Part shown: piece after piece, positions 17,399 through 44,370 of the stretch
Layout: each line of letters starts with the position of its first letter
Position numbering within the stretch: the stretch's first letter is position 1
Source: Patescibacteria group bacterium
GTDB lineage: Bacteria > Patescibacteriota > Patescibacteriia > UBA10025 > JAHIVO01
NCBI GenBank assembly: GCA_041660605.1
Contig: JBAZWB010000001.1
Location: 393,295-457,294 of the forward strand
Direction of reading: 5' to 3'
Length of the DNA stretch: 64,000 nucleotides
The notes under the pieces: generated by a model
What the model was told of the DNA's origin: nothing
Databases searched by the model: none
What the model saw: only the letters and a program-made list of their open reading frames with translations
Position numbers and translations under genes: made by a program

Positions 17399-19477
17399 AT
17401 GCTAAAGTTGTTAACTAACCTAGGTACTACGGTTCTCGTAGTAATTCTATTATCTGTAACGGCAATTGCAGGTGATACATGGCTGCTTACATTCCCGCTT
17501 GATGTACAACCGGATAGTTGGCCATGTAATTTCCAGTGTCATGACAATCGTCCCGGAGGAAATGACTACAGCTGTAATACAGGTACAAATGTATTAGCTG
17601 CAGAGGATGGATACGTTCATATTCACGACGATCCTGACGGTTATGGCACGTATCTCACGGAAGACATAGCCTATTATCAATTGTATTACGGGCATTTGTC
17701 GGAAGTATTAGTCAATGAGGGACAATTTGTTACCCAAGGAAGTGTGATTGCGAAAAGCGGGAGCACTGGTTGGTCCACGGGTCCACATCTTCATTTCGAA
17801 GTACGATCAAGCAATATGCCAATTGATCCGTATAATATTAATCACTGGCTCTGGGTTTCACCGCCACCATTCAATCCGGTAACTCTTTATTCACAGCTTG
17901 CATATTCTGGTACCTGCGTCGGTAAGTCCCACAGCAATACCCTAGTACTTCTACCGGGTTCTTCCGCAGAATGCTGGATTGATTTCAAGTGTAACCCGCC
18001 ATTCTATTGGTCAAGTAATGGGAATAGTTCGCATTATGTAGCACTGCATTCGGTAGCTAGTAACTGGACTGACATGGAAGACTCGCCGGTGATTACAGGC
18101 ACTACTAATTTGCTGGATGATGATGGTAGTACAGCGGATCCGAATGGTGTAGCTCGATTTAATTTCACCATAACTGCTCCACAGTCGCCCGGCACATATA
18201 CACTTCGTGCAAGAGTGTATCATCCACATTCAGGTACTTTTATCACAGGCACTGGTCCTGATGTTACATTTAATGTTCAGGTAGTCAGTCCACCGCAAGA
18301 AAACACCAGTTACTACCCTATTTCCGGTGACTTCAACGGTGACGGCCTGGCTGATGTGGGACTTTACGATCAGATAACCGGCAACTGGTACATAGCTTTG
18401 CACAGTTCGACTTCAAACCGCTTCATTCCACAAGCCGAACCCTGGCTCACTGGCTGGGGAACCGGCATCGGCAACTACTTGCCAACCAGTGGTGACGTTG
18501 ATGGTGATGGATTGTGGGATTTAATACTCTACCAGCCAGTCAATGGCCGGTGGGCAGTAGCCAAAAACTACGGCGGTTATTTCGCCCAGCTTAATGGAAC
18601 TTATATCCATGGCTGTTGGTATGAGAACTGGGGCACCGGCGAAGGAGTCTACTTTCCTGCAAGTGGTGATGTTGACGGTGACGGATTATGGGATGCCATA
18701 CTTTATCAGCCTGTTAACGGAAGATGGCCGGTAGCAAAGAACTACGGTGACCACTTCACCCAGATCAACGGGCCATATGCGCGCGGCTGTTGGTACGAGA
18801 ACTGGGGAACCGGCGTGGGTGTCTACCAGCCAGTCTCTGGAGATGTTGACGGTGACGGTTTATCTGACATTTTACTCTACCAGCCAGTCAATGGCCGGTG
18901 GGCAGTAGCCAAAAACTACGGCGGTTATTTCGCGCAATTGAACGGACCGTATGTTCGAGGATGTTGGCTGGCTAACTGGGGAACAGGCGTTGGAGTTTAC
19001 ATGCCCATCAGCGGTGACGTAGACAATGACGGCTTGACTGATATTCTGCTTTACGTTCCAAGTACCGGTAGATGGGCAGTTGCCAAGAACTATGGTGGCT
19101 ATTTTGCCCAGATCAATGGCCCTTATATTAATGGCTGCTGGCTGGTGAACTGGGGCATTCAGAACGAAGGTACCCCGAAAATCGCTACTCCAGAAACGGA
19201 GAATCCGCTTCCGGCAGACTTCACTCTTTCCCAAAACTATCCGAATCCATTCAATCCGGTCACGAATATCAGCTATTCATTACCGGTTGCTGCCGATGTC
19301 TGCCTGGAAATTTACAACGTCCTGGGGCAGAGAGTAGCCACGCTGGCAAATGAACGGCAGGTGGCTGGTGAGCACAGCATTCAGTGGGATGCTCATCAGT
19401 GTCCGTCCGGAATCTATTTCTACAGGTTAACAACAGATCAGGTTACTGAAACGAAAAAAATGATCATTCTGAAGTAA
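17399..19477 (+). CDS. Secreted M23 (LytM/lysostaphin-type) metallopeptidase with 5 FG-GAP-like repeats and a T9SS (Por) C-terminal sorting domain
   Basis: Signal peptide; HIHDDPD and GPHLHFEV M23 motifs; five SGDVDGDGLxD-type repeats; C-terminal QNYPNPFNPVTNISYSLP...LEIYNVLGQRVATL...SGIYFYRL sorting-tail signature; strong SD aaggaggg. Confidence 0.8.
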   Translation: MLKLLTNLGTTVLVVILLSVTAIAGDTWLLTFPLDVQPDSWPCNFQCHDNRPGGNDYSCNTGTNVLAAEDGYVHIHDDPDGYGTYLTEDIAYYQLYYGHLSEVLVNEGQFVTQGSVIAKSGSTGWSTGPHLHFEVRSSNMPIDPYNINHWLWVSPPPFNPVTLYSQLAYSGTCVGKSHSNTLVLLPGSSAECWIDFKCNPPFYWSSNGNSSHYVALHSVASNWTDMEDSPVITGTTNLLDDDGSTADPNGVARFNFTITAPQSPGTYTLRARVYHPHSGTFITGTGPDVTFNVQVVSPPQENTSYYPISGDFNGDGLADVGLYDQITGNWYIALHSSTSNRFIPQAEPWLTGWGTGIGNYLPTSGDVDGDGLWDLILYQPVNGRWAVAKNYGGYFAQLNGTYIHGCWYENWGTGEGVYFPASGDVDGDGLWDAILYQPVNGRWPVAKNYGDHFTQINGPYARGCWYENWGTGVGVYQPVSGDVDGDGLSDILLYQPVNGRWAVAKNYGGYFAQLNGPYVRGCWLANWGTGVGVYMPISGDVDNDGLTDILLYVPSTGRWAVAKNYGGYFAQINGPYINGCWLVNWGIQNEGTPKIATPETENPLPADFTLSQNYPNPFNPVTNISYSLPVAADVCLEIYNVLGQRVATLANERQVAGEHSIQWDAHQCPSGIYFYRLTTDQVTETKKMIILK
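18322..19190 (+). repeat. Intragenic tandem array of about 5 units of roughly 175 nt, with about 58-nt blocks identical between units
   Basis: ctctaccagccagtcaatggccggtgggcagtagccaaaaactacggcggttatttcgc occurs at about 18528 and again at about 18880. Confidence 0.7.
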
Positions 19478-19498
19478 CCTTCCCTAAATCACAATCAA

Positions 19499-19531
19499 CC
19501 CTTGCGGCAGAAATGCTGCAAGGTTTTTTTA
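19499..19531 (+). terminator. Intrinsic terminator of the M23/FG-GAP gene
   Basis: ccttgcggcag-aaat-gctgcaagg perfect hairpin followed by ttttttt. Confidence 0.8.
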
Positions 19532-19586
19532 TCTGTTCATTTTATATATTAAATACGGCAGTTATGTGGTAAAAATCAACCAAGTC

Positions 19587-19614
19587 TTGACAATATTAAT
19601 TTTTAGGTTATACT
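19587..19614 (+). promoter_or_regulatory. Sigma70-like promoter (TTGACA, 16-nt spacer, TATACT)
   Basis: Near-consensus hexamers upstream of the 19689 gene. Confidence 0.5.
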
Positions 19615-19688
19615 ATATAGTTCAATAGTCTTAGTTCGCACATTATATTATTGAGATAATAAACAAAGGATAATTTCCTAGGAGGGAT

Positions 19689-20042
19689 ATGGATCCTAAG
19701 GTTGCAGTTTTAATTGGTGTGATGGCGGTAGTAGCGGTTATTATTGCTCTGCGAAATAAGCCAGGGCAGAATAAGCCGGTTGTTGTCGAGGCTGAACGGA
19801 TTCCTCGAACACTGGTAATCAGTGTCAGATGCATTGTGTACGAAGGCAATAAAACCCTTGCCAAGTATCCTAATGAACGCATCATCGTTGGTCGAGGGAG
19901 ATATCTTTTAGAGAAGGTTCCCAGCCTAGACAACTTTGGTGGCTGTTGGTTGGTGCTAGAAGGTACAATGCGCGGCCGGCCTATTGATGAATGGCTGGCG
20001 GAGGCTCAGGATAAAACATCCGAGTACCGTCTCGAATATTGA
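19689..20042 (+). CDS. Hypothetical small protein with an N-terminal TM helix
   Basis: Strong SD aggaggg; own promoter and terminator. Confidence 0.5.
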   Translation: MDPKVAVLIGVMAVVAVIIALRNKPGQNKPVVVEAERIPRTLVISVRCIVYEGNKTLAKYPNERIIVGRGRYLLEKVPSLDNFGGCWLVLEGTMRGRPIDEWLAEAQDKTSEYRLEY

Positions 20043-20078
20043 GACGAACACGATTACAATTCACCTTCACCGGTGAAG

Positions 20079-20108
20079 CCCGTTGGCAGATGTCGACGGG
20101 TTTTTTTA
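20079..20108 (+). terminator. Intrinsic terminator
   Basis: cccgttggcagatgtcgacggg hairpin followed by ttttttt, preceded by a second hairpin cttcaccggtgaag. Confidence 0.75.
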
Positions 20109-20159
20109 TTGAAAAAGCCATTAATTGCTAATGAATTTGCATATTTTTATAAAATGGCA

Positions 20160-20188
20160 TTGACAAATTGAAAGAAATGGAGTACACT
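20160..20188 (+). promoter_or_regulatory. Sigma70-like promoter (TTGACA, 17-nt spacer, TACACT) with an A/T-rich UP region
   Basis: Hexamers upstream of the Zn-ribbon gene. Confidence 0.5.
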
Positions 20189-20218
20189 AGTGGATAAAAT
20201 ATGTTTTGGGGAGGAAGT

Positions 20219-20509
20219 ATGTCATTTCTCGGAACGATCGTTGCGCACCTTGCGACAAGACCAATAACCCAATATGTTGATTCGACATCAAGTACTGGCA
20301 ATACTGGACAGCCTAAAGAATTACCCAGATGCCGTAAATGTGGCCAAAAGCATAAGGACGGGGAATCGTGTCCTTGTCCGCTTTGTCCTAAATGCGGCAG
20401 TGTTATGGAAGCAGCTGATAATAGTGGAGTGCTTCAGTGCTACCATAATGCTTACCATTGTCTGGTATGCGGAAACACTTTAAGGGTTAACGGAAAACAC
20501 AGGCGGTGA
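20219..20509 (+). CDS. Small Cys-rich zinc-ribbon protein; an alternative start exists at 20201
   Basis: CRKCGQK...CPCPLCPKCG...CYHNAYHCLVCG Cys clusters; SD ggggagga precedes the ATG at 20219. Confidence 0.5.
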   Translation: MSFLGTIVAHLATRPITQYVDSTSSTGNTGQPKELPRCRKCGQKHKDGESCPCPLCPKCGSVMEAADNSGVLQCYHNAYHCLVCGNTLRVNGKHRR

Positions 20510-20543
20510 AAAAAACTTCAAAACTTTTCACCGCTATTTTTTT
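20504..20543 (+). terminator. Intrinsic terminator
   Basis: gcggtgaaaa...ttttcaccgc hairpin followed by a T-run. Confidence 0.7.
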
Positions 20544-20604
20544 AGATAATTTATTTGAGTTTCCTACTCTTGCTTTTCTTTAAGTTGACGGTTAAAATTA
20601 ATTC

Positions 20605-20955
20605 ATGAATGAGATAAGTGAGTTAGCAAAAAAGATATTAAAATTCCGCGACGACCGGGATTGGGCGCAATACCATAAGCCCAAGGAACTGGCGGTTTCC
20701 ATCAGCATTGAGTCAGCCGAACTGCTGGAAAAATTCCAGTGGGAGCGGAAAAACAAACCGGAATACATTGCCGCCCATCGCCGGGAAATCGGCGAAGAAC
20801 TGGCTGATGTGATGATTTATTCGCTGTTATTGGCAGAGACGCTGGGTTTGGACGTGAAAAAAATCGTGGAAGAAAAGTTAAAGCATAACGAAAAAAAATA
20901 TCCCATTGCTAAGGCAAAAGGCAATGATATTAAATATACCGAACTGCAATCTTAG
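20605..20955 (+). CDS. MazG-like nucleoside triphosphate pyrophosphohydrolase (all-alpha NTP-PPase)
   Basis: EXXE...EELADV pattern typical of the MazG/YpjD family. Confidence 0.65.
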   Translation: MNEISELAKKILKFRDDRDWAQYHKPKELAVSISIESAELLEKFQWERKNKPEYIAAHRREIGEELADVMIYSLLLAETLGLDVKKIVEEKLKHNEKKYPIAKAKGNDIKYTELQS

Positions 20956-21021
20956 TTGTCTGCGGTTTTAATGTGTCGGTATTTTTTATAATCCCGATTT
21001 TTTAAGGCTGATGTTTTACTT

Positions 21022-21039
21022 AAAATATGGTAAAATATT
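21022..21039 (+). promoter_or_regulatory. Extended -10 promoter motif AAATATGGTAAAAT
   Basis: TGgTAAAAT; the same 14-mer recurs at 24546 and 57967. Confidence 0.45.
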
Positions 21040-21042
21040 ATT

Positions 21043-24042
21043 ATGAATATCTCTGATAATTTAAATCTCGCGCAGAAAAAAGCCGTCCAGTTCGGGTCCG
21101 GCCCTCTTTTGATAGTAGCCGGCGCCGGTACCGGGAAAACCACCGTTATTACCCAGCGGCTGGCCTGGCTGATTCTGGAAAAGAAAATCGGCACGGATAA
21201 TATCCTGGCTCTGACTTTTACGGAAAAGGCGGCCTCGGAAATGGAGGAGCGGGTGGATGTGCTCATGCCCTATGGCTATGTGGATTTATGGGTTTCTACT
21301 TTTCATTCTTTTTGTGAAAGAATTCTAAAAGACAATGCCTTGGAGATAGGATTGCCGCCGGACTTCAAATTATTAAACGAAACAGACCAGGTTCTACTGG
21401 TACGGAGGAATTTTGACGCTTTTGATCTGGATTATTACCGGCCGCTGGGGAATCCCACTAAATTCGTCCAGGCCCTGGTCAAGCATTTTTCCCGGGCCAA
21501 GGACGAGAATGTGCAGCCAGAAGAATATTTAGAGTACGCTAAAGGCCTTCAGCTGGACCGGGATGACGATAAATTCGTAAAAAGCCGGGGCGAGGACGAC
21601 CAGGAGATTTCCGAGGAGCAGAGGATTATCGAGGTAGCCAACGCTTATCATGTTTACCAGCAGCTATTATTGGACAACAGCGCACTGGATTTTGGCGATT
21701 TGATTTTATATACCATAAAGCTTTTCAAAAGCCGGCCGAAGATACTGAGAAAATATCAGGACCAGTTTCAATATATTCTAGTTGATGAATTCCAGGATAC
21801 GAATTACGCCCAATATGAGCTGGTCAAAATGCTCTCTGCCCCGAAAAATAACCTGACGGTGGTGGGGGACGACGACCAGTCAATTTATAAATTCCGCGGC
21901 GCGGCTATTTCCAATATTTTGGAATTCAAAAAAGATTATCCTGATTCGCATGAAATCGTCCTGACCGACAACTACCGTTCGCGACAGAACATCCTGGATT
22001 TATCGTATAAATTTATTAAGCAGAACGATCCTAACCGTCTGGAGTATCAGCTTTCTAAGGGTCGTATTGACCCCAAGGGCGCGCCGTTGAAAAGTAAGAT
22101 TTCTAAAAAGTTGAAAGCGCATACAACCGAACCAGGAGCTATATTGCATCTGCATTTCAGGTCATATTTGGAGGAAGCATCGGGCGTCGTGAAAAAGATA
22201 GTTGAGCTTAAGAAAAAAGATAAAAAGTTATTATGGAGCGATTTTGCAATATTAGTCAGAGCTAACGCCAATGCTGCTGAGTTTATAACGGCTTTGGCGC
22301 GATATGACATACCATACCAGTTTTTGGCTTCAAAAGGGCTTTATTCACAGCCGGAAGTGATGGACGTGATTGCTTACCTGAAAATGCTGGATAATTACCA
22401 TGAGTCAGCGGCCATGTGGCGGGTTTTGAATTTAAATCACTGGAATCTGCCGCACCAAGATATAATGACTTTGTCTTATTACGCCCGGCGCAAAAACGTT
22501 TCCCTGCATGAAGCAGCGGAAAAAGCCAGATTAATCCCTGGTGTCAGGCCGGAAATGACCAAAGCGCTGGATAAAATACTTTCTATGATAAAAAACCACA
22601 CCCAGCTGACCAGAGGTAAAGGCGTTTTAGCAGTAGCTTTGCGGTTTATGGAAGATTCAGGGTATTTAAAAAATATTACCAATAAAGATAGCCAGGAGAA
22701 TCTGGAAAAGATAATTCACCTAAACCAATTTTTCCGCAAGATAGAACAGTTTGAGTCTTTGCATGAAGATAAATCAGTAAAAAATTTCATTTCCGAACTG
22801 GAACAGGCGCAGGAAGCAGGGGAGGAGGGTTCAATGCAGCAACCGATAGAAGAGGGACCGGAAGCCGTCAAATTAATGACAGTGCATGGCGCCAAAGGCT
22901 TGGAATTTCATTATGCGTTTTTAGTAAATTTAGTGGATAAGCGTTTCCCGACTATCGAACGCAAGGAGCAGATAGAACTGCCGGATAAATTAATCAAAGA
23001 AATCATTCCGGAAGGGGACATCCATCTGCAGGAAGAACGCCGGCTTTTTTACGTAGGCGTGACGCGGGCTAAAACCGGGGTGTTCTTCACTTCAGCCGAC
23101 GATTACGGCGGCAACCGCAAGAAAAAACCGTCACGCTTTTTAATAGAATTGGGTTTAGTCACCAAGCGGGGAGCAGAAGAGTTGGATCCGGCAGAGCGGT
23201 TGCGGCCGGCACCCGCCACCCAGCGAGAAATTAAAGAGCTGGAATACCTGCAAAAAGCCATTCCGGAGAAGGCCAGCTTTACCCAGATAAAAGCCTTCCA
23301 GACCTGCCCCAAGCAGTATAAGTTCGCACATATCCTGCGCGTACCGGTGGAAGGCAAGCATACTTTCAGTTTCGGCAAATCCATGCACAATACTTTGTAC
23401 CAGTTCTTTAAACAGATAAAAGAAGGCGGTTCAGCGGAGCAGGCGGATTTATTCGAGCAGAAAAAATCTAAGTCAAAAAAAATCAGCGTTAGCTTGGAGC
23501 AGCTTTTGGAAATTTATCAGCGTGAGTGGATCGATGAGTGGTACCTGTCCAAGGAGCATATGGATGAATATTTCCATAAAGGCAAGGAAACTCTGGGCAA
23601 TTTTTACCAATCGCACCAGGGCAAGTTTTCCAAGCCCTTGCATCTGGAAAAAGGCTTTAATATAAAATTAGGCAATTACTCGCTCAGAGGCGTGATCGAC
23701 AGGATTGATGAAATTAAAAAAGGCGAAGTGGAAATTATTGATTATAAGACCGGGCAGTTCCCTAAAAACGGTAAGCTTTCACCTGACGAAAAAGAGCAGC
23801 TGATGATTTATGATCTGGCGGTCAGGGAAGTCATGAAACTGAAACCGGTGGTTTTAAGTTATTATTATCTGGAAGCCAATAAAAAATTGTCATTTAGTTC
23901 CGGCGAAGGGGAGTTGGTGAAAATTAAAGATAAACTGATTGAATTAATCAAAGGCATCAGGGCCAGCGATTTCAGAGCCACACCGGGTTTTTGGTGCCAG
24001 TCGTGCGATTTCCGGGAGATCTGCGAGGATCGGTGGAGGTAA
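21043..24042 (+). CDS. UvrD/PcrA-type SF1 helicase fused to a C-terminal PD-(D/E)xK nuclease with an Fe-S-like Cys cluster (AddA-like)
   Basis: GAGTGKT Walker A; VDEFQDTN motif II; C-terminal IDRIDE...IDYKTG nuclease motifs; CQSCDFREIC. Confidence 0.85.
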   Translation: MNISDNLNLAQKKAVQFGSGPLLIVAGAGTGKTTVITQRLAWLILEKKIGTDNILALTFTEKAASEMEERVDVLMPYGYVDLWVSTFHSFCERILKDNALEIGLPPDFKLLNETDQVLLVRRNFDAFDLDYYRPLGNPTKFVQALVKHFSRAKDENVQPEEYLEYAKGLQLDRDDDKFVKSRGEDDQEISEEQRIIEVANAYHVYQQLLLDNSALDFGDLILYTIKLFKSRPKILRKYQDQFQYILVDEFQDTNYAQYELVKMLSAPKNNLTVVGDDDQSIYKFRGAAISNILEFKKDYPDSHEIVLTDNYRSRQNILDLSYKFIKQNDPNRLEYQLSKGRIDPKGAPLKSKISKKLKAHTTEPGAILHLHFRSYLEEASGVVKKIVELKKKDKKLLWSDFAILVRANANAAEFITALARYDIPYQFLASKGLYSQPEVMDVIAYLKMLDNYHESAAMWRVLNLNHWNLPHQDIMTLSYYARRKNVSLHEAAEKARLIPGVRPEMTKALDKILSMIKNHTQLTRGKGVLAVALRFMEDSGYLKNITNKDSQENLEKIIHLNQFFRKIEQFESLHEDKSVKNFISELEQAQEAGEEGSMQQPIEEGPEAVKLMTVHGAKGLEFHYAFLVNLVDKRFPTIERKEQIELPDKLIKEIIPEGDIHLQEERRLFYVGVTRAKTGVFFTSADDYGGNRKKKPSRFLIELGLVTKRGAEELDPAERLRPAPATQREIKELEYLQKAIPEKASFTQIKAFQTCPKQYKFAHILRVPVEGKHTFSFGKSMHNTLYQFFKQIKEGGSAEQADLFEQKKSKSKKISVSLEQLLEIYQREWIDEWYLSKEHMDEYFHKGKETLGNFYQSHQGKFSKPLHLEKGFNIKLGNYSLRGVIDRIDEIKKGEVEIIDYKTGQFPKNGKLSPDEKEQLMIYDLAVREVMKLKPVVLSYYYLEANKKLSFSSGEGELVKIKDKLIELIKGIRASDFRATPGFWCQSCDFREICEDRWR

Positions 24043-35257: not shown

Positions 35258-35653
35258 ATGAAATTATTCTTAACTTCCACCCTGCATAATGATTGGAATT
35301 TGAAATTCAATCCGAAGCTGACGGCAGCCTTGGAATCACGCGGATTTACCGTGCACATGCCCCAGCGGGATACTGACCAGCGGGCTCCGGAAGCCGAGCG
35401 GGTCCGGCAGAACATGGAAGCGGTTAAAAAAGCCGATGCCTGCGTCATTGTTCTGGAGAATCAATCCATGAATTTAGCGGCAGAAACCGGGTATGCTTAT
35501 GGAACCGGCCGGCCGACGATCGCGCTGGTTAAAAAAGGGGAATTTATCCACTGGATGCTGAGAGGCATGTTAAATGTTATAATTGAGGTAGAAGATATTG
35601 CTGACATTGATGCCTATATTGGGCAGCTGGAAAAAGCCTTAAAAGAAAGCTAA
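35258..35653 (+). CDS. Nucleoside 2-deoxyribosyltransferase-like protein (NDT/DNPH1-Rcl fold)
   Basis: ADACVIVLEN...AAETGYAYGTGRPTIALV matches the NDT-family core, including a Glu nucleophile candidate. Confidence 0.5.
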   Translation: MKLFLTSTLHNDWNLKFNPKLTAALESRGFTVHMPQRDTDQRAPEAERVRQNMEAVKKADACVIVLENQSMNLAAETGYAYGTGRPTIALVKKGEFIHWMLRGMLNVIIEVEDIADIDAYIGQLEKALKES

Positions 35654-35654
35654 T

Positions 35655-36197
35655 ATGAAGAATGTTGAGTTAAAAGTTAAAGTTGATAATTTTAACAAGG
35701 TTAATAGCAGTTTGAAAAACATCAAGGCCAAGTTCCAGCAGACATTAAAGCAAATAGACACCTATTTTCACCCTGCGGGTGATCCCCCGAAGGGGGATAA
35801 TTTACCAGACGCCCGGTTTAAGCTGAGAGAAATTAATAACAGGACTTTTGAATTAATTTATTACCGCCGGCCTGATCATGAAAAATCAAAAGTTTCTGAT
35901 TTTTCCGTTTTACAATTAGACAGAAAAATAGCCAGACAAATGAAAAATTATTTTAAAGCTACGCTTGGCGTTAAGGTAATAGTTAAGAAAGTACGCAGGT
36001 TTTGGCTTTATAAGCATACGAGAATTTTATTGGATGAAGTAAGTAACCTCGGCAAATTTTTAGAATTAGAAACGGTTGTTAAGGGCATTAGTTTATCGGC
36101 AGCCAAAAAAGAGCAACTGTCGGTAATTCAAGAACTGGGGCTTAATAAGTATAAAAAAATCGCCAGATCATACAGCGATTTATTATTAAAAAAATGA
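35655..36197 (+). CDS. CYTH-domain protein (triphosphate tunnel metalloenzyme, class IV adenylyl-cyclase-like)
   Basis: N-terminal ExExK-type motif (VELKVKV) and C-terminal ELE motif (FLELETVV); 180 aa. Confidence 0.55.
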
Positions 36198-37006
36198 AAA
36201 ACTATTTAAATTTATTACAAGACATTCTAGACCACGGCACGGATAAGGCCGACCGGACCGGCACCGGCACCAGAAGCCTTTTTGGCCGGCAGATGCGGTT
36301 TAATCTGAGCCAGGGATTTCCCCTGGTGACGACCAAAAAAGTGCACCTGAAGTCCATTATGTACGAATTATTGTGGTTCCTGAAAGGGGACACAAATATT
36401 AAGTATCTGAATGACAATGGCGTGCATATCTGGGATGAATGGGCAGATGAGCACGGCGATCTCGGGCCGATTTACGGCAAGCAATGGACGTCCTGGGAAG
36501 GCAAGGATGGGAAAACTATTAACCAAATCGCCGAGGTGCAGGAGATGATCCGCACCAACCCTGATTCCAGGCGCATCATAGTTTCCGGTTGGAATGTGGC
36601 TGATCTGCAGAGTCTTATTGCCGGCAAAAAAACCGCTCCGCCGCCCTGCCATACAATGTTCCAGTTTTACATTGCCAATAATAAATTATCCTGCCAGCTT
36701 TACCAGCGCAGTGCCGATGTCTTCCTGGGTGTGCCGTTTAACATCGCTTCATATTCGCTTCTGACCATGATGATGGCGCAGGTAACAGGCAAGGAGTTGG
36801 GCGATTTTGTGCATACTTTCGGTGACGTGCATATTTATAATAACCATTTTGACCAGGTGAAATTGCAGCTCACCAGGGAACCTCGTCCTCTGCCAACAAT
36901 GAAGATTAATCTGAAAGTGAAAGACATTTTTAGTTTTAAATTTGAAGATTTTACTTTAGAAGATTATGATCCGCATCCGCGCATCAAAGCGCCGATAGCC
37001 ATTTAA
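36194..37006 (+). CDS. thyA: Thymidylate synthase (ThyA type)
   Basis: [15 protein letters not shown] active-site Cys, DVHIY motifs. Confidence 0.95.
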
Positions 37007-37011
37007 TTACC

Positions 37012-37506
37012 ATGAATAAGCCTATCATCAGTACAATTGTTGCAGTAGCTGAGAAAAATCGTGCCATCGGATTTAAAAATAAGTTGCTCTGGCATATTCC
37101 CGAGGATTTGCAGCGATTTAAAAAAATAACCCGCGGCCATCCGGTTATCATGGGGCAGACGACTTTTGAGTCCATCGGCAAACCGCTGCCGGAGAGAACT
37201 AATATCGTTATGACACTGGACAAGAATTTCAAGGCAGCAGGCGTGACAATCTGCTATTCTCTAGACGAGGCGATTGCTGAAGCTTCAAAACATGATCAAG
37301 GGGAGATATTTTTCTGCGGCGGAGCGACTATTTACAGGCTTGCTTTACCGTTGACTGACAGGCTTTATGTCACCGTAGTGAAAGGCGAGTATGAGGCAGA
37401 TACGTTTTTTCCGGATTATTCTGAATTTACCAAGATTATCAGCCGCCAGGAGAGCCGAGACGATAAGCATGAGTACACCTTTTTTATCTTAGAAAAAAGC
37501 ATATGA
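37012..37506 (+). CDS. folA: Dihydrofolate reductase
   Basis: IVAVAEKNRAIG...LLW and VIMGQTTFESIG DHFR motifs. Confidence 0.9.
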   Translation: MNKPIISTIVAVAEKNRAIGFKNKLLWHIPEDLQRFKKITRGHPVIMGQTTFESIGKPLPERTNIVMTLDKNFKAAGVTICYSLDEAIAEASKHDQGEIFFCGGATIYRLALPLTDRLYVTVVKGEYEADTFFPDYSEFTKIISRQESRDDKHEYTFFILEKSI

Positions 37507-38168
37507 AAAAGAAAATAGGAAAATTGATTGTTTTTGACGCCATTGATGGCGCGGGCAAGACCACGCAGGTAAAGTTATTATTAAACCATTTGCGCCGCGA
37601 AAAGATAAAATACTATCTCACTGATTTTCCGCAGTATGAAAAATCTTTTTTCGGCAAGATGGTCAGGCAGTATTTGCAGGGTGCTTTTGGCGAAGTGGGC
37701 AAGACAGATCCGCATTTAATTTCCCTGCTCTACGCGCTGGACCGTTTTGAAGCTAAGAAAAGGATGTGGAAAATCTTGAAATCAGGCAGGGTGATTGTTT
37801 CTGACCGTTATTCTCCGGCCAATAAAATTCATCAGGCTTCAAAAATAAAAAATATCCGCAGGAAAGATGAATTTTTGGATTGGCTGGATAAGGTGGAATT
37901 TGGTATTTTAGGGATCCCTCGGCCCGATCTAGTGCTGTTTCTGGACGTACCGCCGAAAATTACGATGGCTATGACAGCGCGTCGCGGCAAGCAGGATTTG
38001 CACGAATCAAGCCTACGGCATCAGCAGGCAGCTTATCAGGAAAGCCTGAGATTGGTAAATAAATATAGCGCCTGGAAAAAGATTGAATGCCTGAGTCACG
38101 GCAATTTGCTCTCACCTGAAAAAATTCATGAGCGCGTCTGGGCTGAGGTAAAAAAGGTAAGTAAATAA
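37503..38168 (+). CDS. tmk: Thymidylate kinase
   Basis: P-loop DAIDGAGKTTQ, DRY motif; overlaps folA by 4 nt. Confidence 0.9.
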   Translation: MKKKIGKLIVFDAIDGAGKTTQVKLLLNHLRREKIKYYLTDFPQYEKSFFGKMVRQYLQGAFGEVGKTDPHLISLLYALDRFEAKKRMWKILKSGRVIVSDRYSPANKIHQASKIKNIRRKDEFLDWLDKVEFGILGIPRPDLVLFLDVPPKITMAMTARRGKQDLHESSLRHQQAAYQESLRLVNKYSAWKKIECLSHGNLLSPEKIHERVWAEVKKVSK

Positions 38169-38261
38169 AAATTTATATATTAAAAAACTGGCAGGCGAAT
38201 TGCTCAGGTTATGGCGTTTTAAGCGCTTTTTTTATTGATTTGACTGTGATAAAATAAATAT

Positions 38262-39812
38262 ATGCAACAATATGAACCAGTCATAGGTTTAGAAATACAT
38301 GTCCAGCTCAAAACTAAGAGCAAGATGTTTTGCAGTTGCGATAACACCGGAGAAACAAAACCTCCCAACACCACGATCTGCCCGATTTGTCTGGGGCACC
38401 CGGGGGTTTTGCCGGTAGTTAATATGCAGGCGGTCCAGTGGGCTCTCCAGGCTGCCCAGGCTTTGTATTGCCAGATCAATCTCAAATCGCATTTTGACCG
38501 CAAGAGCTATTTTTATCCGGATCTGCCAAAAGGCTACCAGATTACCCAGCATAGCGCGCCTTTTGGGCACGACGGCCATTTAATAGTTAACGGGCGGACT
38601 GGCAAGCACCGTATACGCATTGAACGGGTGCATCTGGAAGAGGATACCGGCAAACTTCTGCACGAGGCGGATAAAAGAGCCAGCTACGTGGATTATAACC
38701 GGGCAGGTACGCCGCTTCTGGAAATAGTCACCCGGCCTGACGTGCCAGATCCTCAGACAGCCAGGATTTTTTTGCAGGAACTGCGATTGATTATGCGCTA
38801 TTTGGGAATTTCCGACGCGGATATGGAGAAAGGGCATTTACGCTGCGACGCCAATATTTCCCTGCGCCCGAATCCTGAATATTTTTTGGACAAAGCTGAT
38901 CAGGCCGGCATCGGCTTGGATCCTCATAAATTATATCCTAAAACAGAAATAAAAAACTTAAATTCCTTCCGTTCCGTGGAAAAAGCGCTGTCCTACGAAA
39001 TTACCAAGCAGACAGAACTTTGGGAAAAAGAAAAAGCGCCGCAGGAGCAATCCACCCACGGCTGGGATGAAAAACAAGGCCAGACTGTGCTGCAGAGGAC
39101 TAAGGAAGAAAAGCATGACTACCGTTATTTTCCTGAGCCTGATTTGCCGGGTTTTGATTTTTCAAAAAGTTTCATTGATGAAATCAGAAAAAAAACAGTA
39201 GAACAACCATATGAGAAACGCCAACGATTTCAGGAGGAGTTCGGCCTGGGCGCTTATGACGTGAATATCCTGGTGGCTGACAAAAAATTGTCGGAATTTT
39301 TTGAGCAGGTTATTTCAGAGCTGAAGGCCTGGTTACTGTCTTTGGAACAAGTCGAAGGGTCGGAGGAAGAAATTTGGAATAAGAATAAAAAAAAGCTGGT
39401 TAAGAAAGCGGCCAACTGGGTCATTACCAGATTATTGGCTTTAACTAACGAAAACGGTGTGAAAATTGCGGAGATTAAAATAACTCCGGAGAATTTTGCT
39501 GAATTAATCACCCTGATTTATCAGAACAAGCTTAATAATCAGACAGCGGTGATAGTGCTGGAGAAAATGTTTTTAACTGGCCAGGATCCCTCAGATATAA
39601 CGGAAGAGGGGGATTTAAACCAACTGACAGACGACAAAGGTTTGGAGCAAATCGCCGAAAAAGTCATAAAAGCGAATAAAAAAGTGGTTGAGCAATTCCA
39701 GGCTGGGAAAACCGCCTCCCTGCAGTATCTGATCGGCCAGGTGATGAAGCAATCAAAGGGCCGGGCAGACGCGAAGAAGGCGGCGGAGATTCTTACCTAC
39801 AAGCTGCAGTAG
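38262..39812 (+). CDS. gatB: Asp-tRNA(Asn)/Glu-tRNA(Gln) amidotransferase subunit B
   Basis: VIGLEIHVQL...CSC N-terminus and GatB/YqeY C-terminal domain. Confidence 0.9.
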   Translation: MQQYEPVIGLEIHVQLKTKSKMFCSCDNTGETKPPNTTICPICLGHPGVLPVVNMQAVQWALQAAQALYCQINLKSHFDRKSYFYPDLPKGYQITQHSAPFGHDGHLIVNGRTGKHRIRIERVHLEEDTGKLLHEADKRASYVDYNRAGTPLLEIVTRPDVPDPQTARIFLQELRLIMRYLGISDADMEKGHLRCDANISLRPNPEYFLDKADQAGIGLDPHKLYPKTEIKNLNSFRSVEKALSYEITKQTELWEKEKAPQEQSTHGWDEKQGQTVLQRTKEEKHDYRYFPEPDLPGFDFSKSFIDEIRKKTVEQPYEKRQRFQEEFGLGAYDVNILVADKKLSEFFEQVISELKAWLLSLEQVEGSEEEIWNKNKKKLVKKAANWVITRLLALTNENGVKIAEIKITPENFAELITLIYQNKLNNQTAVIVLEKMFLTGQDPSDITEEGDLNQLTDDKGLEQIAEKVIKANKKVVEQFQAGKTASLQYLIGQVMKQSKGRADAKKAAEILTYKLQ

Positions 39813-39969
39813 AAAATATTCAAGTTTTTATTTAGTATAATATTTATAACCGCGGTAGCGCCGCCAAATTTTTTTGAGATAAATTATTCATTGTGGATAA
39901 GTAAGTTTTTTATCTAATATTAGCCTATTTGACACTCACAATTTTTTAGAGTATCGTTAGTAGCAGAAT

Positions 39970-40092
39970 ATGAAAAATTTTTCAGTACAAGTCGTTCAAC
40001 CTGAAACGCTCGGCACTCACCAAGGCCCGGGAAATCCCGGGATTTTTTTTATCTCCAATTTTTTTAGCGGTATTACAATGGTGTATGAATAA
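39970..40092 (+). CDS. Candidate 40-aa leader peptide (MKNFSVQVVQPETLGTHQGPGNPGIFFISNFFSGITMVYE) spanning the attenuator and overlapping the carA start by 8 nt
   Basis: Small ORF read directly from the sequence; contains the terminator hairpin and U-tracts; ends 5 nt inside carA. Confidence 0.35.
   Translation: MKNFSVQVVQPETLGTHQGPGNPGIFFISNFFSGITMVYE
40024..40051 (+). terminator. Intrinsic terminator/attenuator immediately upstream of carA
   Basis: gcccggg-aaat-cccgggc-like hairpin followed by tttttttt. Confidence 0.65.
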
Positions 40093-41170
40093 TAGAAGAA
40101 CTACAAAAGCAACTCTATTACTTGAAGACGGATCACGGTACACTGGCCGGGTATTCGGCTGCAAAAAACAAAGCGTGGCAGGTGAAATTGTTTTTACTAC
40201 CGGCATGGTTGGCTATTCAGAATCATTGACTGACCCGTCATATCGCGGTCAAATTCTTGTTATGACTTATCCGCTAATCGGCAATTATGGGGTTGAATGT
40301 AGTCAGGCACAATCGCGTTCTTTGGACGAATCTTTTGAGTCAGAGAGAATCCAGGCCAGCGCGCTCATAGTATCATCGCAAATAACCAAACCCAGTCATT
40401 ATAAATCAGCGCGAAGTCTTGAGCAATGGCTGGCCAGCGAGAAAATAATTGGTCTAGAAGGGATTGACACTCGTTCATTAACGCAGCGGTTGCGTGAACA
40501 TGGCACTATGCTGGCAAAAATTATAATTGATGATAACGATATTCCCTGGTTTGATCCGAATAAACAAAATATAGTTGAGCAGGTAAGCAGTCCGCGGATA
40601 CGAAGATACGGTTCACGCGGGCCGCATGTTGTTGTTATTGATTGCGGAGCAAAGCGGGGAATCATCCGCGAGTTATGCCAGCGCTCCTGCCGCGTAACGA
40701 GAGTACCATGGAATTATCCAGTCAGTACCATGCGGGGGATTGACGGCGTAGTGGTCTCAAACGGACCTGGCAATCCGGTTTATGCTTCTGAAACGGTTGA
40801 TGAATTGAAGCGCCTTATCAAATTGCGGATTCCCCTCTGGGGAATCTGCCTGGGACACCAGCTGCTGGCAATGGCTTTGGGTGCGCGGACTTACAAACTC
40901 GCTTATGGACACCGCAGCCAAAACCAGCCAGTGATTGATATTAAATCAGGCCGTGCTTTCATCACCAGTCAAAATCATGGATTTGCGGTTAGGGAATCGA
41001 CTCTGCCCAGTTCAGCCAGGCCGTGGTTCAGAAACGGCAATGACGGAACAAATGAAGGATTTAAACACAGCACTCAGCCTATATGGGGCGTGCAATTTCA
41101 TCCTGAGGCTTCCCCCGGGCCGCGCGATACCGCGTTTTTGTTTGATGAATTTATTAATTTATTAAAATGA
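40085..41170 (+). CDS. carA: Carbamoyl-phosphate synthase small (glutamine amidotransferase) subunit
   Basis: GICLGHQ catalytic Cys and the GATase class-I triad region. Confidence 0.9.
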   Translation: MNNRRTTKATLLLEDGSRYTGRVFGCKKQSVAGEIVFTTGMVGYSESLTDPSYRGQILVMTYPLIGNYGVECSQAQSRSLDESFESERIQASALIVSSQITKPSHYKSARSLEQWLASEKIIGLEGIDTRSLTQRLREHGTMLAKIIIDDNDIPWFDPNKQNIVEQVSSPRIRRYGSRGPHVVVIDCGAKRGIIRELCQRSCRVTRVPWNYPVSTMRGIDGVVVSNGPGNPVYASETVDELKRLIKLRIPLWGICLGHQLLAMALGARTYKLAYGHRSQNQPVIDIKSGRAFITSQNHGFAVRESTLPSSARPWFRNGNDGTNEGFKHSTQPIWGVQFHPEASPGPRDTAFLFDEFINLLK

Positions 41171-44100
41171 GCAAACATCCCCTAACGATATTACTTTTAG
41201 GCTCTGGCGCCTTAAAAATCGGCCAGGCAGGGGAATTTGATTATTCTGGTTCGCAGGCCATTAAAGCAATTAAAGCATGCGGTTACCGGGTTGTTCTGAT
41301 AAATCCAAATGTCGCTACTATTCAGACGTCAGACAGCTTGGCTGATGAGGTTTATTTTCTGCCAGTTGACGCTTATTTTGCTGAAAAGGTGATTACCGCG
41401 GAACGGCCATACGGCATTATGCTTGGTTTTGGCGGCCAAACAGCTCTTAACTGCGGGCTTGAATTAGACCGACGGGGTGTTTTGAAAAAGTATAGTGTTA
41501 AAGTTCTTGGGACGCCAATTAAAAGTATCCGTTTAACCGAGGACAGGGAACTGTTCGCGAATTTTATGGTACGCAACGGTTTTTGCGTGCCGCGTAGCAA
41601 AGCGGTAACGTCTGTTAAAGCAGCCCAGAGTGCGGCCAAACGGATAGGGTATCCGGTAATGATCCGCAGCGGATTTTCATTGGGTGGACTCGGTTCAGGC
41701 ATAGTGCAAACGCCTAGTGAATTGATTGCCATCGCTACTGCAGCGCTGGCTCACGCTCCGCAAATTCTCATTGAAGAATGCCTGCGCGGTTGGAAGGAAG
41801 TTGAGTATGAGGTGGTCAGGGACAGCAGCGGAAATTGCTGTACAATTTGCAATATGGAAAATCTTGATCCGCTTGGTATACATACGGGAGACAGCATTGT
41901 CGTAGCGCCATCCCAGACTCTTAACAACCGTGAGTACCATAGTCTGCGATCTATATCCATTAATGTAATTAAAAAGCTGGGTATTATCGGCGAGTGCAAT
42001 ATCCAGTTTGCCCTTGATCCAATTTCGGATAAGTATCGGATTATCGAAGTTAATGCCCGCCTTTCCCGTTCTTCCGCGCTCGCCTCCAAGGCTACAGGAT
42101 ATCCGCTGGCCGCGGTGGCAGCTCAGCTGGCGCTGGGGAAGCAATTAACAGAGATACGGAACGCAGTGACGAAAAAAACCCCGGCTTTTTTCGAACCCGC
42201 GCTTGATTATATCGTTTTGAAATTCCCGCGTTGGGATTTCTCCAAATTTCTCCATGCTGACCTGAGTATCGGTAGTCAGATGAAAAGCGTCGGTGAGGTG
42301 ATGGCCATCGGCCGAAGCTTCCCGGAAGTCCTCCAAAAAGCCATTCGCATGCTGGATATCGGCCGTGACAGCATATTAGATAAAAATCCGGATCCTGTCG
42401 CACTGGCTGACGCCGCTAAGCCGACACCGCAAAGAATTTTTTACTTGGCTGCCGCTTTATATCATGGCATTTCACCAGCTGTACTATCTAAGCGCACAGG
42501 GATTGACCGCTGGTTTCTCAGTCAAATCCAAGATATTACAAAATTACAAAAGCAGCTGCAAAGCTCTTTATTCAATCAGTTTAATAAATCAACCCTTTTG
42601 GAAGCGAAGCAATTTGGTTTCAGCGACTGCCTGCTTGGTAAACTCTGCGGAATGAGTAGCGATCAGATTCGCGCCAAACGCAAGCAATTTGATGTTTTGC
42701 CATATGTGAAACGCATTGATACGGTCGCGGCTGAGTTTCCCGCTCAGACAAATTATCTCTATTGCACTTATCACGCCACCGCTTCTGACCGGCTTCCCGA
42801 TAAACGAAAGTCGGCCGTGGTTATCGGGTCAGGGGTATACCGGATCGGATCATCCGTGGAGTTTGACTGGTGCGCAGTAAATGCGGCTGCTGAACTGCAC
42901 CGGCAGGGATTCAGTTCAATAATGATCAACTGCAATCCTGAAACTGTTTCAACTGACTATGATGTCAGTGATGCACTATATTTTGAGGAGCTGACGCTGG
43001 AGCGGGTTTTGGATATTTGTGATCACGAAAATCCTGAAGGTGCGGTGGTTTCAGTCGGCGGCCAGGTAGCCAATAATCTTGCTTTGGGTCTGGCCAAGCG
43101 GAGAATTAATTTGCTGGGCACCTCGGCGAAAGCCATTGATAACGCGGAGGATAGACATAAATTTTCCAAGCTGTTGGATCGTTTGGGAATCAAGCAACCA
43201 GCCTGGACTGAAGCGACAACGGCCGTCGCGACCGAGTCTTTTGCTGAACGCGTTGGTTTCCCGGTAATAATCCGGCCGAGCTATGTCCTTAGCGGATCAG
43301 CGATGAATGTGGCGACTAACATGAACCAGCTTCGCCTGTTCCTGCGTGATGCCGCGCTTGTTTCACCAGAGCATCCAGTTGTAGTTTCAAAATTTGAAAT
43401 TGACGCACATGAAATTGACGTTGATGCAGTAGCGCAGAATGGGAGGATATTGACTGCTATTGTTTCCGAGCATGTTGAAAATGCCGGCGTGCATTCGGGA
43501 GACGCAACGCTGGTCCTGCCCCCGCAGAAAGTTTATATTGAAACATACCAGCAAATTAAGGAAGCAGTTAATAAAATAGCCGCAGAGTTGCAGATAACCG
43601 GTCCATGCAATTTTCAATTTCTTGCCCGGGACAACCAGATAAAAGTGATTGAATGCAATTTGCGTGCTTCACGGAGCTTTCCTTTTGCCTCAAAGGTAAC
43701 CAATATTAATCTTATTAAATTGTCAATCCAGGCAATGGTCCTGCGTCAGGTGGCCCCTCATCCTGTGCCGCGCTTGCCTTACGTAGCAGTGAAGGCGCCC
43801 CAATTTTCTTTTCATCGGTTGACCGGCACTGATCCGATACTGCGTGTTGAGATGGCTTCAACCGGCGAAGTGGCCTCGTTCGGTCGGGATGTATATGAGG
43901 CATTTCTTAAATCAGTTTTGGCAACCGGCTTCCGCCTTCCTCGCCGGAGCATTCTGCTAAGTCTAGGCGGGGAGCATAATAAAATGAAACTGCTTGATGA
44001 AATTCAGTCTCTGGCTAACAGGGGATTCTATCTTTTTGCCACGGAGAATACTCATGAATTCCTGACCGCACGGGGGATTGCCAGCAAATTATTGCATAAA

Positions 44101-44370
44101 ATTCACATTACGAAAGAACCGAACATCAGGTCTTACCTTCAGCAGCATAAAATTGAGCTGGTCATAAATCTGGCACACCAGTTTGAGGGTGAAGTAATAC
44201 GCGATGATTATGTTATGCGCCGGTTAGCAATTGATTTCAATGTTCCTCTAATAACCAATCTGCAATTGGCGCAGCTATTTCTCCGTGCAATTCAGTGTAA
44301 AAATCTTGATGACCTTCAGGCAAAACCCTGGTCAGCATACCGGCCCTTAGTTAATGCGAAAAAATTATAG
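41167..44370 (+). CDS. carB: Carbamoyl-phosphate synthase large subunit
   Basis: Two ATP-grasp halves, oligomerisation and MGS-like domains over 1067 aa. Confidence 0.95.
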   Translation: MSKHPLTILLLGSGALKIGQAGEFDYSGSQAIKAIKACGYRVVLINPNVATIQTSDSLADEVYFLPVDAYFAEKVITAERPYGIMLGFGGQTALNCGLELDRRGVLKKYSVKVLGTPIKSIRLTEDRELFANFMVRNGFCVPRSKAVTSVKAAQSAAKRIGYPVMIRSGFSLGGLGSGIVQTPSELIAIATAALAHAPQILIEECLRGWKEVEYEVVRDSSGNCCTICNMENLDPLGIHTGDSIVVAPSQTLNNREYHSLRSISINVIKKLGIIGECNIQFALDPISDKYRIIEVNARLSRSSALASKATGYPLAAVAAQLALGKQLTEIRNAVTKKTPAFFEPALDYIVLKFPRWDFSKFLHADLSIGSQMKSVGEVMAIGRSFPEVLQKAIRMLDIGRDSILDKNPDPVALADAAKPTPQRIFYLAAALYHGISPAVLSKRTGIDRWFLSQIQDITKLQKQLQSSLFNQFNKSTLLEAKQFGFSDCLLGKLCGMSSDQIRAKRKQFDVLPYVKRIDTVAAEFPAQTNYLYCTYHATASDRLPDKRKSAVVIGSGVYRIGSSVEFDWCAVNAAAELHRQGFSSIMINCNPETVSTDYDVSDALYFEELTLERVLDICDHENPEGAVVSVGGQVANNLALGLAKRRINLLGTSAKAIDNAEDRHKFSKLLDRLGIKQPAWTEATTAVATESFAERVGFPVIIRPSYVLSGSAMNVATNMNQLRLFLRDAALVSPEHPVVVSKFEIDAHEIDVDAVAQNGRILTAIVSEHVENAGVHSGDATLVLPPQKVYIETYQQIKEAVNKIAAELQITGPCNFQFLARDNQIKVIECNLRASRSFPFASKVTNINLIKLSIQAMVLRQVAPHPVPRLPYVAVKAPQFSFHRLTGTDPILRVEMASTGEVASFGRDVYEAFLKSVLATGFRLPRRSILLSLGGEHNKMKLLDEIQSLANRGFYLFATENTHEFLTARGIASKLLHKIHITKEPNIRSYLQQHKIELVINLAHQFEGEVIRDDYVMRRLAIDFNVPLITNLQLAQLFLRAIQCKNLDDLQAKPWSAYRPLVNAKKL

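Follow-up and report, generated by a model that had tools for sequence, protein, structure and literature searches.

We have analysed the leader region of carAB, the genes for carbamoyl-phosphate synthase, in a 64-kb stretch of genomic DNA from a Patescibacteria group bacterium; this whole stretch of 64,000 nucleotides is called the window below. Between gatB and carA lie, one after another, a candidate DnaA box, a predicted sigma-70 promoter, a mini open reading frame (mini-ORF) opening with ATG, a short motif of the form CUSGR, and a GC hairpin followed by a run of T (Table 1). An earlier reading of the same DNA, here called the sequence-only reading, had described a 40-codon open reading frame (ORF) that starts 115 nt before carA and overlaps the carA start in another frame, with a GC hairpin and U8 terminator inside it, and had taken the whole for an attenuator of the Escherichia coli pyrBI type. 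The ORF list and the translation agree with the ORF so described, and the terminator scan recovers the terminator at 40026-40050. The Pfam domains of carA and carB were read on relatives and on the contig L081, which does not differ from the window at any of the 4,928 nt compared and so gives no information on strain-level polymorphism.

Table 1 Features of the carAB locus in the window, in order of position.
Feature	Positions	Strand	Description	Basis
gatB	38262-39812	+	upstream neighbour of the carAB unit	
gatB terminator	39852-39875	+	hairpin GCGGTAGCGCCGC, then CAAA and T7	terminator scan, sequence reading
DnaA-like box	39892-39900	+	TGTGGATAA, reverse complement of the perfect DnaA box TTATCCACA; 7/7 lineages	
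Palindrome	39914-39923	+	CTAATATTAG, between the DnaA-like box and the -35	sequence reading
Sigma-70 promoter	39929-39957	+	TTGACA, 17-nt spacer, TATCGT	10/12 consensus matches
Leader mini-ORF	39970-40092	+	ATG, 40 codons	ORF list, translation
CUSGR-family motif	40009-40013	+	CUCGG, begins 39 nt after the A of AUG	
Intrinsic terminator 1	40026-40050	+	CCCGGG, loop AAAT, CCCGGG, A, T8	terminator scan
Weak second terminator-like element	40039-40065	+	GGGAU (40039-40043) pairs with AUCUC (40051-40055), then CAA and T7 (40059-40065)	constrained folds
carA	40085-41170	+	carbamoyl-phosphate synthase small subunit; no Shine-Dalgarno sequence	ORF list, Pfam
carB	41167-44370	+	large subunit; start overlaps the carA stop	ORF list, Pfam

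Terminator 1 consists of a perfect 6-bp hairpin, CCCGGGAAATCCCGGG at 40026-40041, and a T8 run at 40043-40050; the 40 nt 5' of the T-run fold at -14.1 kcal/mol, a fold dominated by this hairpin. The -10 box occupies 39952-39957 and transcription is predicted to start at about 39964-39965, so that the AUG of the mini-ORF would lie about 5-6 nt from the 5' end, with no Shine-Dalgarno sequence before it. The mini-ORF encodes MKNFSVQVVQPETLGTHQGPGNPGIFFISNFFSGITMVYE followed by a stop. Starting 115 nt 5' of the carA ATG, it passes through both T-runs; its last sense codon ends 5 nt inside carA and its stop 8 nt inside, overlapping carA codons 2-3 (the overlap with the carA start is UAUGAAUAA).

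Judged from the window alone, the case for a regulatory leader is weak. As to the terminator versus alternative structures raised by the sequence-only reading, folding does predict the terminator hairpin and a 5-bp alternative helix, but neither this helix nor the region 39940-40095 as a whole (z = -0.06) is better than shuffled sequences. Terminator-like sites found by the scan number 3 in 900 nt against 1.0 expected, and T6-T8 tracts are ordinary among the terminators of the window. The real evidence is that six other lineages have conserved the unit as a whole.

Through exact-protein look-ups in the nearest carA clusters, we have found the unit in L082, L083, L086, L087, L088 and L212 (P0015), whose carA products share 81%, 67%, 64%, 59%, 58% and 57% identity with that of the window, respectively. 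The closest named relative by carA is Candidatus Kerfeldbacteria bacterium. The order of the elements is the same in all seven lineages, i.e., TGTGGATAA, promoter, ATG, CUSGR motif, GC hairpin and T7-T8, within a unit of ~160 nt. Other contigs repeat these lineages over the 500-nt stretches compared, L084 and L085 matching L083, and L089 and L090 matching L088. The genes around the unit run DHFR-tmk-gatB-carA-carB in L083, L086 and L088, and in L212 a sigma-70 gene is followed by gatB-carA-carB; gatB is not seen upstream on the L082 and L087 contigs. Among the sequences collected, a profile hidden Markov model of the unit (nhmmer) matches only carA upstream regions, and it finds no second copy in the window.

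Further from the window the unit disappears. It is missing upstream of the carA relatives P0016, P0063 and P0093 (L214, L216 and L217), and the distant carA loci L001-L029 have no upstream terminators. A scan of genome contigs for carA reached at best 49% identity among the matches listed, with no clade members among them; for the metagenome pattern TGTGGATAA-N(112-142)-GRGAWTTTTTT, 0 of the 80 loci among the matches listed encode carA; and a query with the first 130 aa of carA, aimed at truncated clade members, gave nothing closer than 62% identity.

Terminator 1 is conserved in 7/7 lineages. The window, L082 and L212 have the stem CCCGGG/CCCGGG, and L083, L086, L087 and L088 have UCUCCG/CGGAGA, that is, the terminator itself covaries. 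The U-tract hardly changes, being A-T8 in six of the seven and T7 in L087. In L083, the T-run ends only 10 nt before the carA ATG, and since this gap leaves no room for a promoter, carA of this lineage must be expressed by read-through. The second terminator-like element forms, in constrained folds, only with the 5' arm of terminator 1 occupied. Stronger versions of it are present in L082 and L212, and this downstream T-run element, which is confined to the subgroup of the window, looks like a back-up terminator.

The sequence-only reading was staked on a small ORF conserved in relatives, and such an ORF is indeed found, with its ATG in 7/7 lineages and its frame always reaching the hairpin. 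In six lineages, 12 nt lie between the -10 box and the ATG; L088 has 11 nt. In all seven, the first in-frame stop lies no earlier than the foot of the last terminator. It starts 4 nt ahead of the 5' arm as scored in L086 and L087; in L083 it falls within the hairpin loop, in L212 within the loop of the second, strong terminator, in L088 past the terminator and 9 nt upstream of carA, and in the window and L082 inside carA. The hairpin is thus read through in the window, L082, L088 and L212. An ORF running on into carA, as had been claimed, therefore holds for the window, but three lineages stop at the hairpin foot or loop. Taken together, the stop positions at or after the hairpin fit a ribosome that needs to cover its 5' arm.

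The encoded peptides are MKDYAPHRLRKCQLGRHYPGYPGIFFILGTFFGTPLAYEQ in L082, MEEFYKKSRISKRLGLPATPGDPGIFFKEFTPRS in L212, MKNNILELNVSHQLEHLILR in L083, MKQFHFLNSSFIHLDSH in L087, MKYQYDTRTKTLNSGY in L086 and MPIQRLKLLLLQYMDRGVLRNRRIFFIYP in L088. The number of Arg residues in the seven peptides ranges from 0 to 5 at no fixed position, and Gln codons are likewise not consistently placed.

A stronger case for translation may be made from the start codon. Shine-Dalgarno sequences are almost absent from the genes of the window, and since the genes of this genome almost never have one, its lack at the leader ATG is no argument against translation. Actually, strong -10-like hexamers near starts often end very close to them, 9 of 24 (that of gatB included) lying 5-7 nt before the start codon. 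With so few Shine-Dalgarno sequences and so many -10 boxes 5-7 nt before starts, a 5'-proximal AUG is a credible start, and the ATG, which is invariant and keeps its distance from the -10 in a genome that would initiate at 5'-proximal AUGs, argues for a translated mini-ORF. We have also observed boxes of the TAAAAT or TACAAT type 5-7 nt before the ATG of many first genes, e.g., at the starts 21043, 38262, 46462 (minus strand), 46523 and 2008, and leaderless mRNAs appear to be common in this Patescibacteria lineage.

The most rigid part of the leader is the distance between the AUG and the CUSGR motif. Counted from the A of AUG to the start of the motif, it measures 39 nt in every lineage but L086, which has 40 nt. 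The 33 nt from codon 2 to the motif nevertheless show a mean identity of 28%, no different from the 28% that chance predicts for a composition of A 35%, C 27%, U 25% and G 12.5%. The neighbouring segments vary in length, with 30-51 nt from the DnaA-like box to the -10, 9-13 nt from the motif to its pairing partner, and 10-60 nt from the terminator to carA. The lack of 3-nt insertions or deletions in the spacer is stricter than a reading frame demands, which suggests two sites that are read at a fixed mutual distance.

The motif itself changes together with the hairpin. CUCGG (the window, L082 and L212) is complementary to CCGGG, and CUGGA (L083, L086 and L087) to UCCGG, the partner being the last five bases atop the 5' arm of the terminator, which in the UCUCCG-type hairpins include the first loop base; in L088, the motif is AUGGA and pairs at four of five positions. 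The pairing of motif and arm thus comprises 5 bp with two compensatory pairs, and the helix is predicted in six of the seven lineages when the transcript is folded without the 3' arm. In addition, the motif has the pyrimidine-then-G step (Y-1/G+1) of the elemental pause consensus. A conserved G-10/Y-1/G+1 consensus was rejected, as only Y-1/G+1 is present. We infer that the CUSGR motif is a real element, which may act as an antiterminator strand, a pause site, or both.

Overall, these observations make it highly probable that the carAB leader is a functional attenuator, conserved in a small clade of Patescibacteria. That this attenuator is ribosome-mediated, i.e., coupled to translation, we consider an even bet, and we give the same weight to the view that a dedicated carAB attenuator with translation-coupled control is the best overall explanation. 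The translation of the mini-ORF, its coupling to termination and the signal are inferred in the following scheme. Transcription would begin at the sigma-70 promoter, and the AUG ~5 nt further on would open the non-conserved mini-ORF. With the terminator ~80 nt downstream, plus the weaker second one in the subgroup of the window, carAB would be transcribed solely through read-through. A ribosome that loads on the 5'-proximal AUG would trail the RNA polymerase, cover the 5' arm of the hairpin and block the terminator; if no ribosome follows closely, the hairpin would form and transcription would end. The CUSGR motif at its fixed 39 nt might be a pause that synchronises polymerase and ribosome, and/or the upstream strand of a short antiterminator. 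The output would be set by ribosome loading against polymerase speed, and would for this reason depend on nucleoside triphosphate (NTP) supply or ribosome availability. Candidate signals are UTP or the general NTP supply, which would slow the polymerase at the U-tract, or the availability of ribosomes.

The distances agree with this scheme in several respects. If the polymerase pauses at the motif (AUG+40 to +42), its separation from a ribosome that initiates on the AUG would be the expressome distance (~38-41 nt). From the coordinates, one can calculate that on the shortest ORFs, of 16 and 17 codons, such a ribosome would accompany the polymerase as far as AUG+80-89, and the U-tracts in the lineages with these ORFs end at AUG+78 and +80; that is, the 16- and 17-codon ORFs are just long enough to escort the polymerase beyond the U-tract. 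In the lineages with two terminators, the ORFs have 34-40 codons. A trailing ribosome has been reported to suppress RNA polymerase pausing and termination in vitro (PMC10135430). A more specific form of the idea is a ribosome-loading checkpoint, in which the 39-nt spacer would serve as a ruler independent of sequence and only a polymerase with a pioneering ribosome would be escorted through one or two terminators. We regard this checkpoint as speculative and rather improbable in this strict form.

Several observations weigh against translation-coupled control. As to the ORF, the seven leader peptides are unrelated beyond the residues dictated by the hairpin and the U-tract; they contain no regulatory codon runs or tandem codons, and no residue is enriched in them. 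Frame +1 is also open before the hairpin in 6/6 lineages, barring a start-overlapping TGA in five, and the control frame +2 is open in 3/6. Because control frames are equally open, the absence of stops is not significant as evidence for an ORF. The AUG lies at about +6 of the predicted transcript, not at +1. As to the motif, its covariation with the arm amounts to a single evolutionary event (one split in the tree), and the duplex of motif and arm is no better than shuffles in any lineage (fraction at least as good, 0.09-0.87); in the sequences as read, the G at -10 of the pause consensus is not conserved around the motif. Finally, the comparison covers only seven lineages.

Of the alternatives, the UTP sensor of the pyrBI type survives best, though we hold it to be unlikely. 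Here, low UTP would slow the polymerase at U-rich sites, and the ribosome would catch up and melt the terminator. The overlap of the ORF with the terminator, the long and nearly invariant U-tract, the second T-runs in the window, L082 and L212, and the pyrimidine-related neighbours (thyA, DHFR and tmk) all agree with such a sensor. What is missing is a conserved U-rich region before the hairpin, where the longest T runs of the six lineages are 5, 2, 3, 1, 2 and 2. The sequence-only reading had pointed to two U-rich runs that encode FF. The FF codon pairs are real, but the runs are the T8 of the terminator and the T7 at 40059-40065, and because they lie in and after the terminator, they cannot be UTP-sensitive pauses ahead of it; runs of this length are, besides, usual for terminators of the window. 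The specific pyrBI architecture and the pre-hairpin U-tracts in relatives thus have to be given up, and UTP as the signal of the attenuator is, on the likeness to pyrBI, a doubtful proposal. Reiterative transcription was considered as well and rejected, there being no conserved homopolymer at the start.

Somewhat less probable still is a switch that works without translation. In this case, a protein or ligand would bind the 5' end GAAUA(C)AUGAA and/or the CUSGR motif, the ATG being kept as RNA sequence, and binding would stabilise either the short antiterminator between CUSGR and the 5' arm or a 5' stem-loop around the AUG. The complementarity of motif and arm with its two compensatory pairs suits this idea, as does the openness of the control frames; an inverted repeat RGAAU...AUUYY around the AUG can moreover be read in 5/7 lineages, and folding predicts it for L083. 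On the other hand, this repeat is missing in L086 and L088, the helices have only 5 bp and do not exceed shuffles, and an RNA helix does not explain the 39-nt ruler. The leader interior is random in sequence with no significant fold, and no Rfam family, PyrR included, matches it. The G-poor spacer, the lack of significant structure and the lack of an Rfam match also argue against a riboswitch aptamer. PyrR attenuation was rejected separately, with neither a motif nor an Rfam match.

An unregulated, leaky terminator is an improbable explanation. It would set a low level of carAB or insulate carAB from gatB, the regulation would take place at the promoter (through TGTGGATAA and the palindrome), and the ORF would be incidental. 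The perfect conservation of the upstream DNA sites and the statistical weakness of the ORF speak for it. However, gatB already has its own terminator, and the invariant ATG, the fixed 39-nt spacer, the CUSGR motif and the 7/7 stops at or after the hairpin would be left unexplained. If the terminator were merely leaky, the locus would be an ordinary operon leader.

The weakest proposal, an independent small gene (a micropeptide, or a small RNA with its terminator) with carA served by another promoter such as TACAAT at 40074-40079, can draw on a complete unit of promoter, ~85-nt transcript and terminator and on the position of TACAAT 5 nt 5' of the carA ATG in the window, but is very improbable, as neither the peptide nor the RNA sequence is conserved, TACAAT is absent in L082, the 10-nt gap of L083 leaves no space for a promoter, and the unit is found only upstream of carA. 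In its own right, the TACAAT of the window could give carA a secondary promoter of the leaderless kind, by which expression would bypass the attenuator.

Upstream of the transcribed part, the unit contains DNA sites that are conserved as well. The -35 of the relatives is TTGACA or TTGACG except in L087, where it is absent; the -10 reads TATnnT and is extended by TGn in L083, L086, L087 and L088. The invariant TGTGGATAA box stands 15-28 nt 5' of the -35 where a -35 is recognisable, and 30 nt before the -10 in L087, in DNA whose flanks are unalignable across the seven lineages. Its positions are 58-66 in L082, 2855-2863 in L083 and 2803-2811 in L086, and it is also present upstream of carA in L087, L088 and L212. 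The 64 kb contain three perfect copies of the DnaA box against 0.53 expected, and GC skew indicates no origin of replication in the window. This pattern suggests that the carAB promoter may be under the control of DnaA or another factor through the candidate box. In L088, a second, partial box TGTGGACC is observed close to the first.

The palindrome between the box and the -35 is limited to the subgroup of the window, where it explains the 12 nt of extra spacing. Its counterpart in L212 is GCTAATATTAGC (about 2313-2324), and the L082 version is degenerate. It may serve as an operator that a dimeric regulator recognises. A reading of TGAAAAATTTTTCA as an ARG box was rejected, as it shows no conservation in relatives. 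Separately, five metagenome contigs (L101 at 4236-4386, L128, L131, L146 and L163) have a unit in common with tandem DnaA-like boxes TGTGGATAAGnTGTGnATTGACAAAA, a TATAAT-like -10, and an AT-rich transcript of ~100 nt with a hairpin and a terminator. It matches no Rfam family; a small RNA gene is one possible reading, and a dnaA/oriC-proximal promoter in genomes like those of the Candidate Phyla Radiation (CPR) is another.

As for the neighbourhood, gatB has a terminator of its own (Table 1), so its transcription is kept apart from the carAB unit. Upstream of carAB lies a nucleotide-metabolism cluster (35258-39812) with a gene like nucleoside 2-deoxyribosyltransferase, a CYTH gene, thyA, DHFR, tmk and gatB, in which thyA was inferred through the matching 270-aa gene of L091. 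The order thyA-DHFR-tmk-gatB-carAB is seen in L091, and its part from DHFR onward in L083, L086 and L088. It is unusual for a reduced CPR genome to encode de novo synthesis of carbamoyl phosphate.

Some observations concern other parts of the material. The L091 contig, which is the NCBI assembly copy of the Kerfeldbacteria leader, has NN and a 22-nt deletion within the mini-ORF (2920-2922) relative to the identical ENA contigs L088-L090, which is probably an assembly artefact. In L214 (3576-5386; also L215; P0016, 54% identity), an ORF of 37 aa and the gene of a 566-aa protein, which weakly matches HNH_repeat, come between carA and carB, and this interruption looks like an insertion into the operon. 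No tRNA gene is present in the 64-kb window, and no Rfam family scores above threshold there. Within the window, the 1.5 kb at 19477-21043 contain no ORF of at least 120 aa and no tRNA or Rfam match, and carry three strong plus-strand terminators with T-runs at 19524, 20101 and 20537; unannotated small RNAs or small genes may be located here.

The leader matters for several reasons. If the mini-ORF is translated, this would be leader-peptide attenuation without a Shine-Dalgarno sequence, from a near-leaderless AUG. If the checkpoint were true, carAB transcription would serve a bacterium without Shine-Dalgarno sequences as a gauge of its NTP supply and of its capacity to initiate translation, and the leader would be a natural attenuator keyed to the spacing of polymerase and ribosome, and not to codon identity or RNA structure. 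The strict spacer of random sequence offers a direct handle on polymerase-ribosome distance as a control of termination. Moreover, the perfect DnaA box at the carAB promoter hints that replication control may be tied to the supply of nucleotide precursors. To our knowledge, Patescibacteria cannot be grown alone for study; the unit, compact at ~160 nt and available from seven lineages, is open to synthesis and testing. In the literature searched, we have found no paper on gene regulation of such kind in Patescibacteria.

Among known systems, the nearest in logic is the E. coli pyrBI leader, whose UTP-sensitive mechanism is reportedly the one set out by Turnbough and Switzer in 2008. In both, a leader ORF is read through an intrinsic terminator just before a gene of the carbamoyl-phosphate/pyrimidine route, it does not matter which peptide is encoded, and the ribosome itself blocks the hairpin (here as proposed), an antiterminator not being obligatory. 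The carAB leader differs in that no U-rich pause cluster precedes its hairpin, no Shine-Dalgarno sequence is present, the AUG is ~5 nt from the predicted 5' end in a leader of ~85 nt, a rigid 39-nt spacer leads to a conserved motif, and the ORF ends at the hairpin in three lineages. No sequence homology to the E. coli pyrBI leader was detected.

In Pseudomonas aeruginosa, the carA promoter region encodes a leader peptide, and the pyrimidine control of the carAB operon has been attributed to attenuation (Kwon et al. 1994, as cited in PMC4997734). Likened by this description, the two share the regulated operon and a leader peptide. They differ in phylum, in the Shine-Dalgarno-dependent initiation and additional ArgR control of Pseudomonas, and in the DnaA-box-like site and palindrome that flank the promoter here. 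The trp, his and leu leader peptides likewise combine a short ORF, a terminator and possible alternative pairings (2:3 versus 3:4). In contrast to them, the carAB leader has no regulatory codon runs, its stop is not placed to free region 3, and its alternative helices have no statistical support. At permissive thresholds, no Rfam match to the window leader, the whole window or five relatives reached the gathering score; the best was Trp_leader with 19.6 bits against a gathering score of 41 (E = 0.23), mainly from the terminator.

In beta-proteobacteria, a carA motif RNA lies upstream of carA (PMC8632094). Like it and the PyrR-binding attenuators of Firmicutes, the present leader is a cis RNA directly before carA or pyr genes that would act via a terminator, where those act via a terminator or ribosome-binding site; those RNAs are structured, whereas this leader has a random interior and no match in Rfam (release 15 of which may not include the carA motif). 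Compared with the known leader-peptide systems, this leader stands apart in four respects: its AUG is near-leaderless and has no Shine-Dalgarno sequence, regulatory codons are missing, no U-rich tract for pausing is present, and the spacer is rigid in length but random in sequence.

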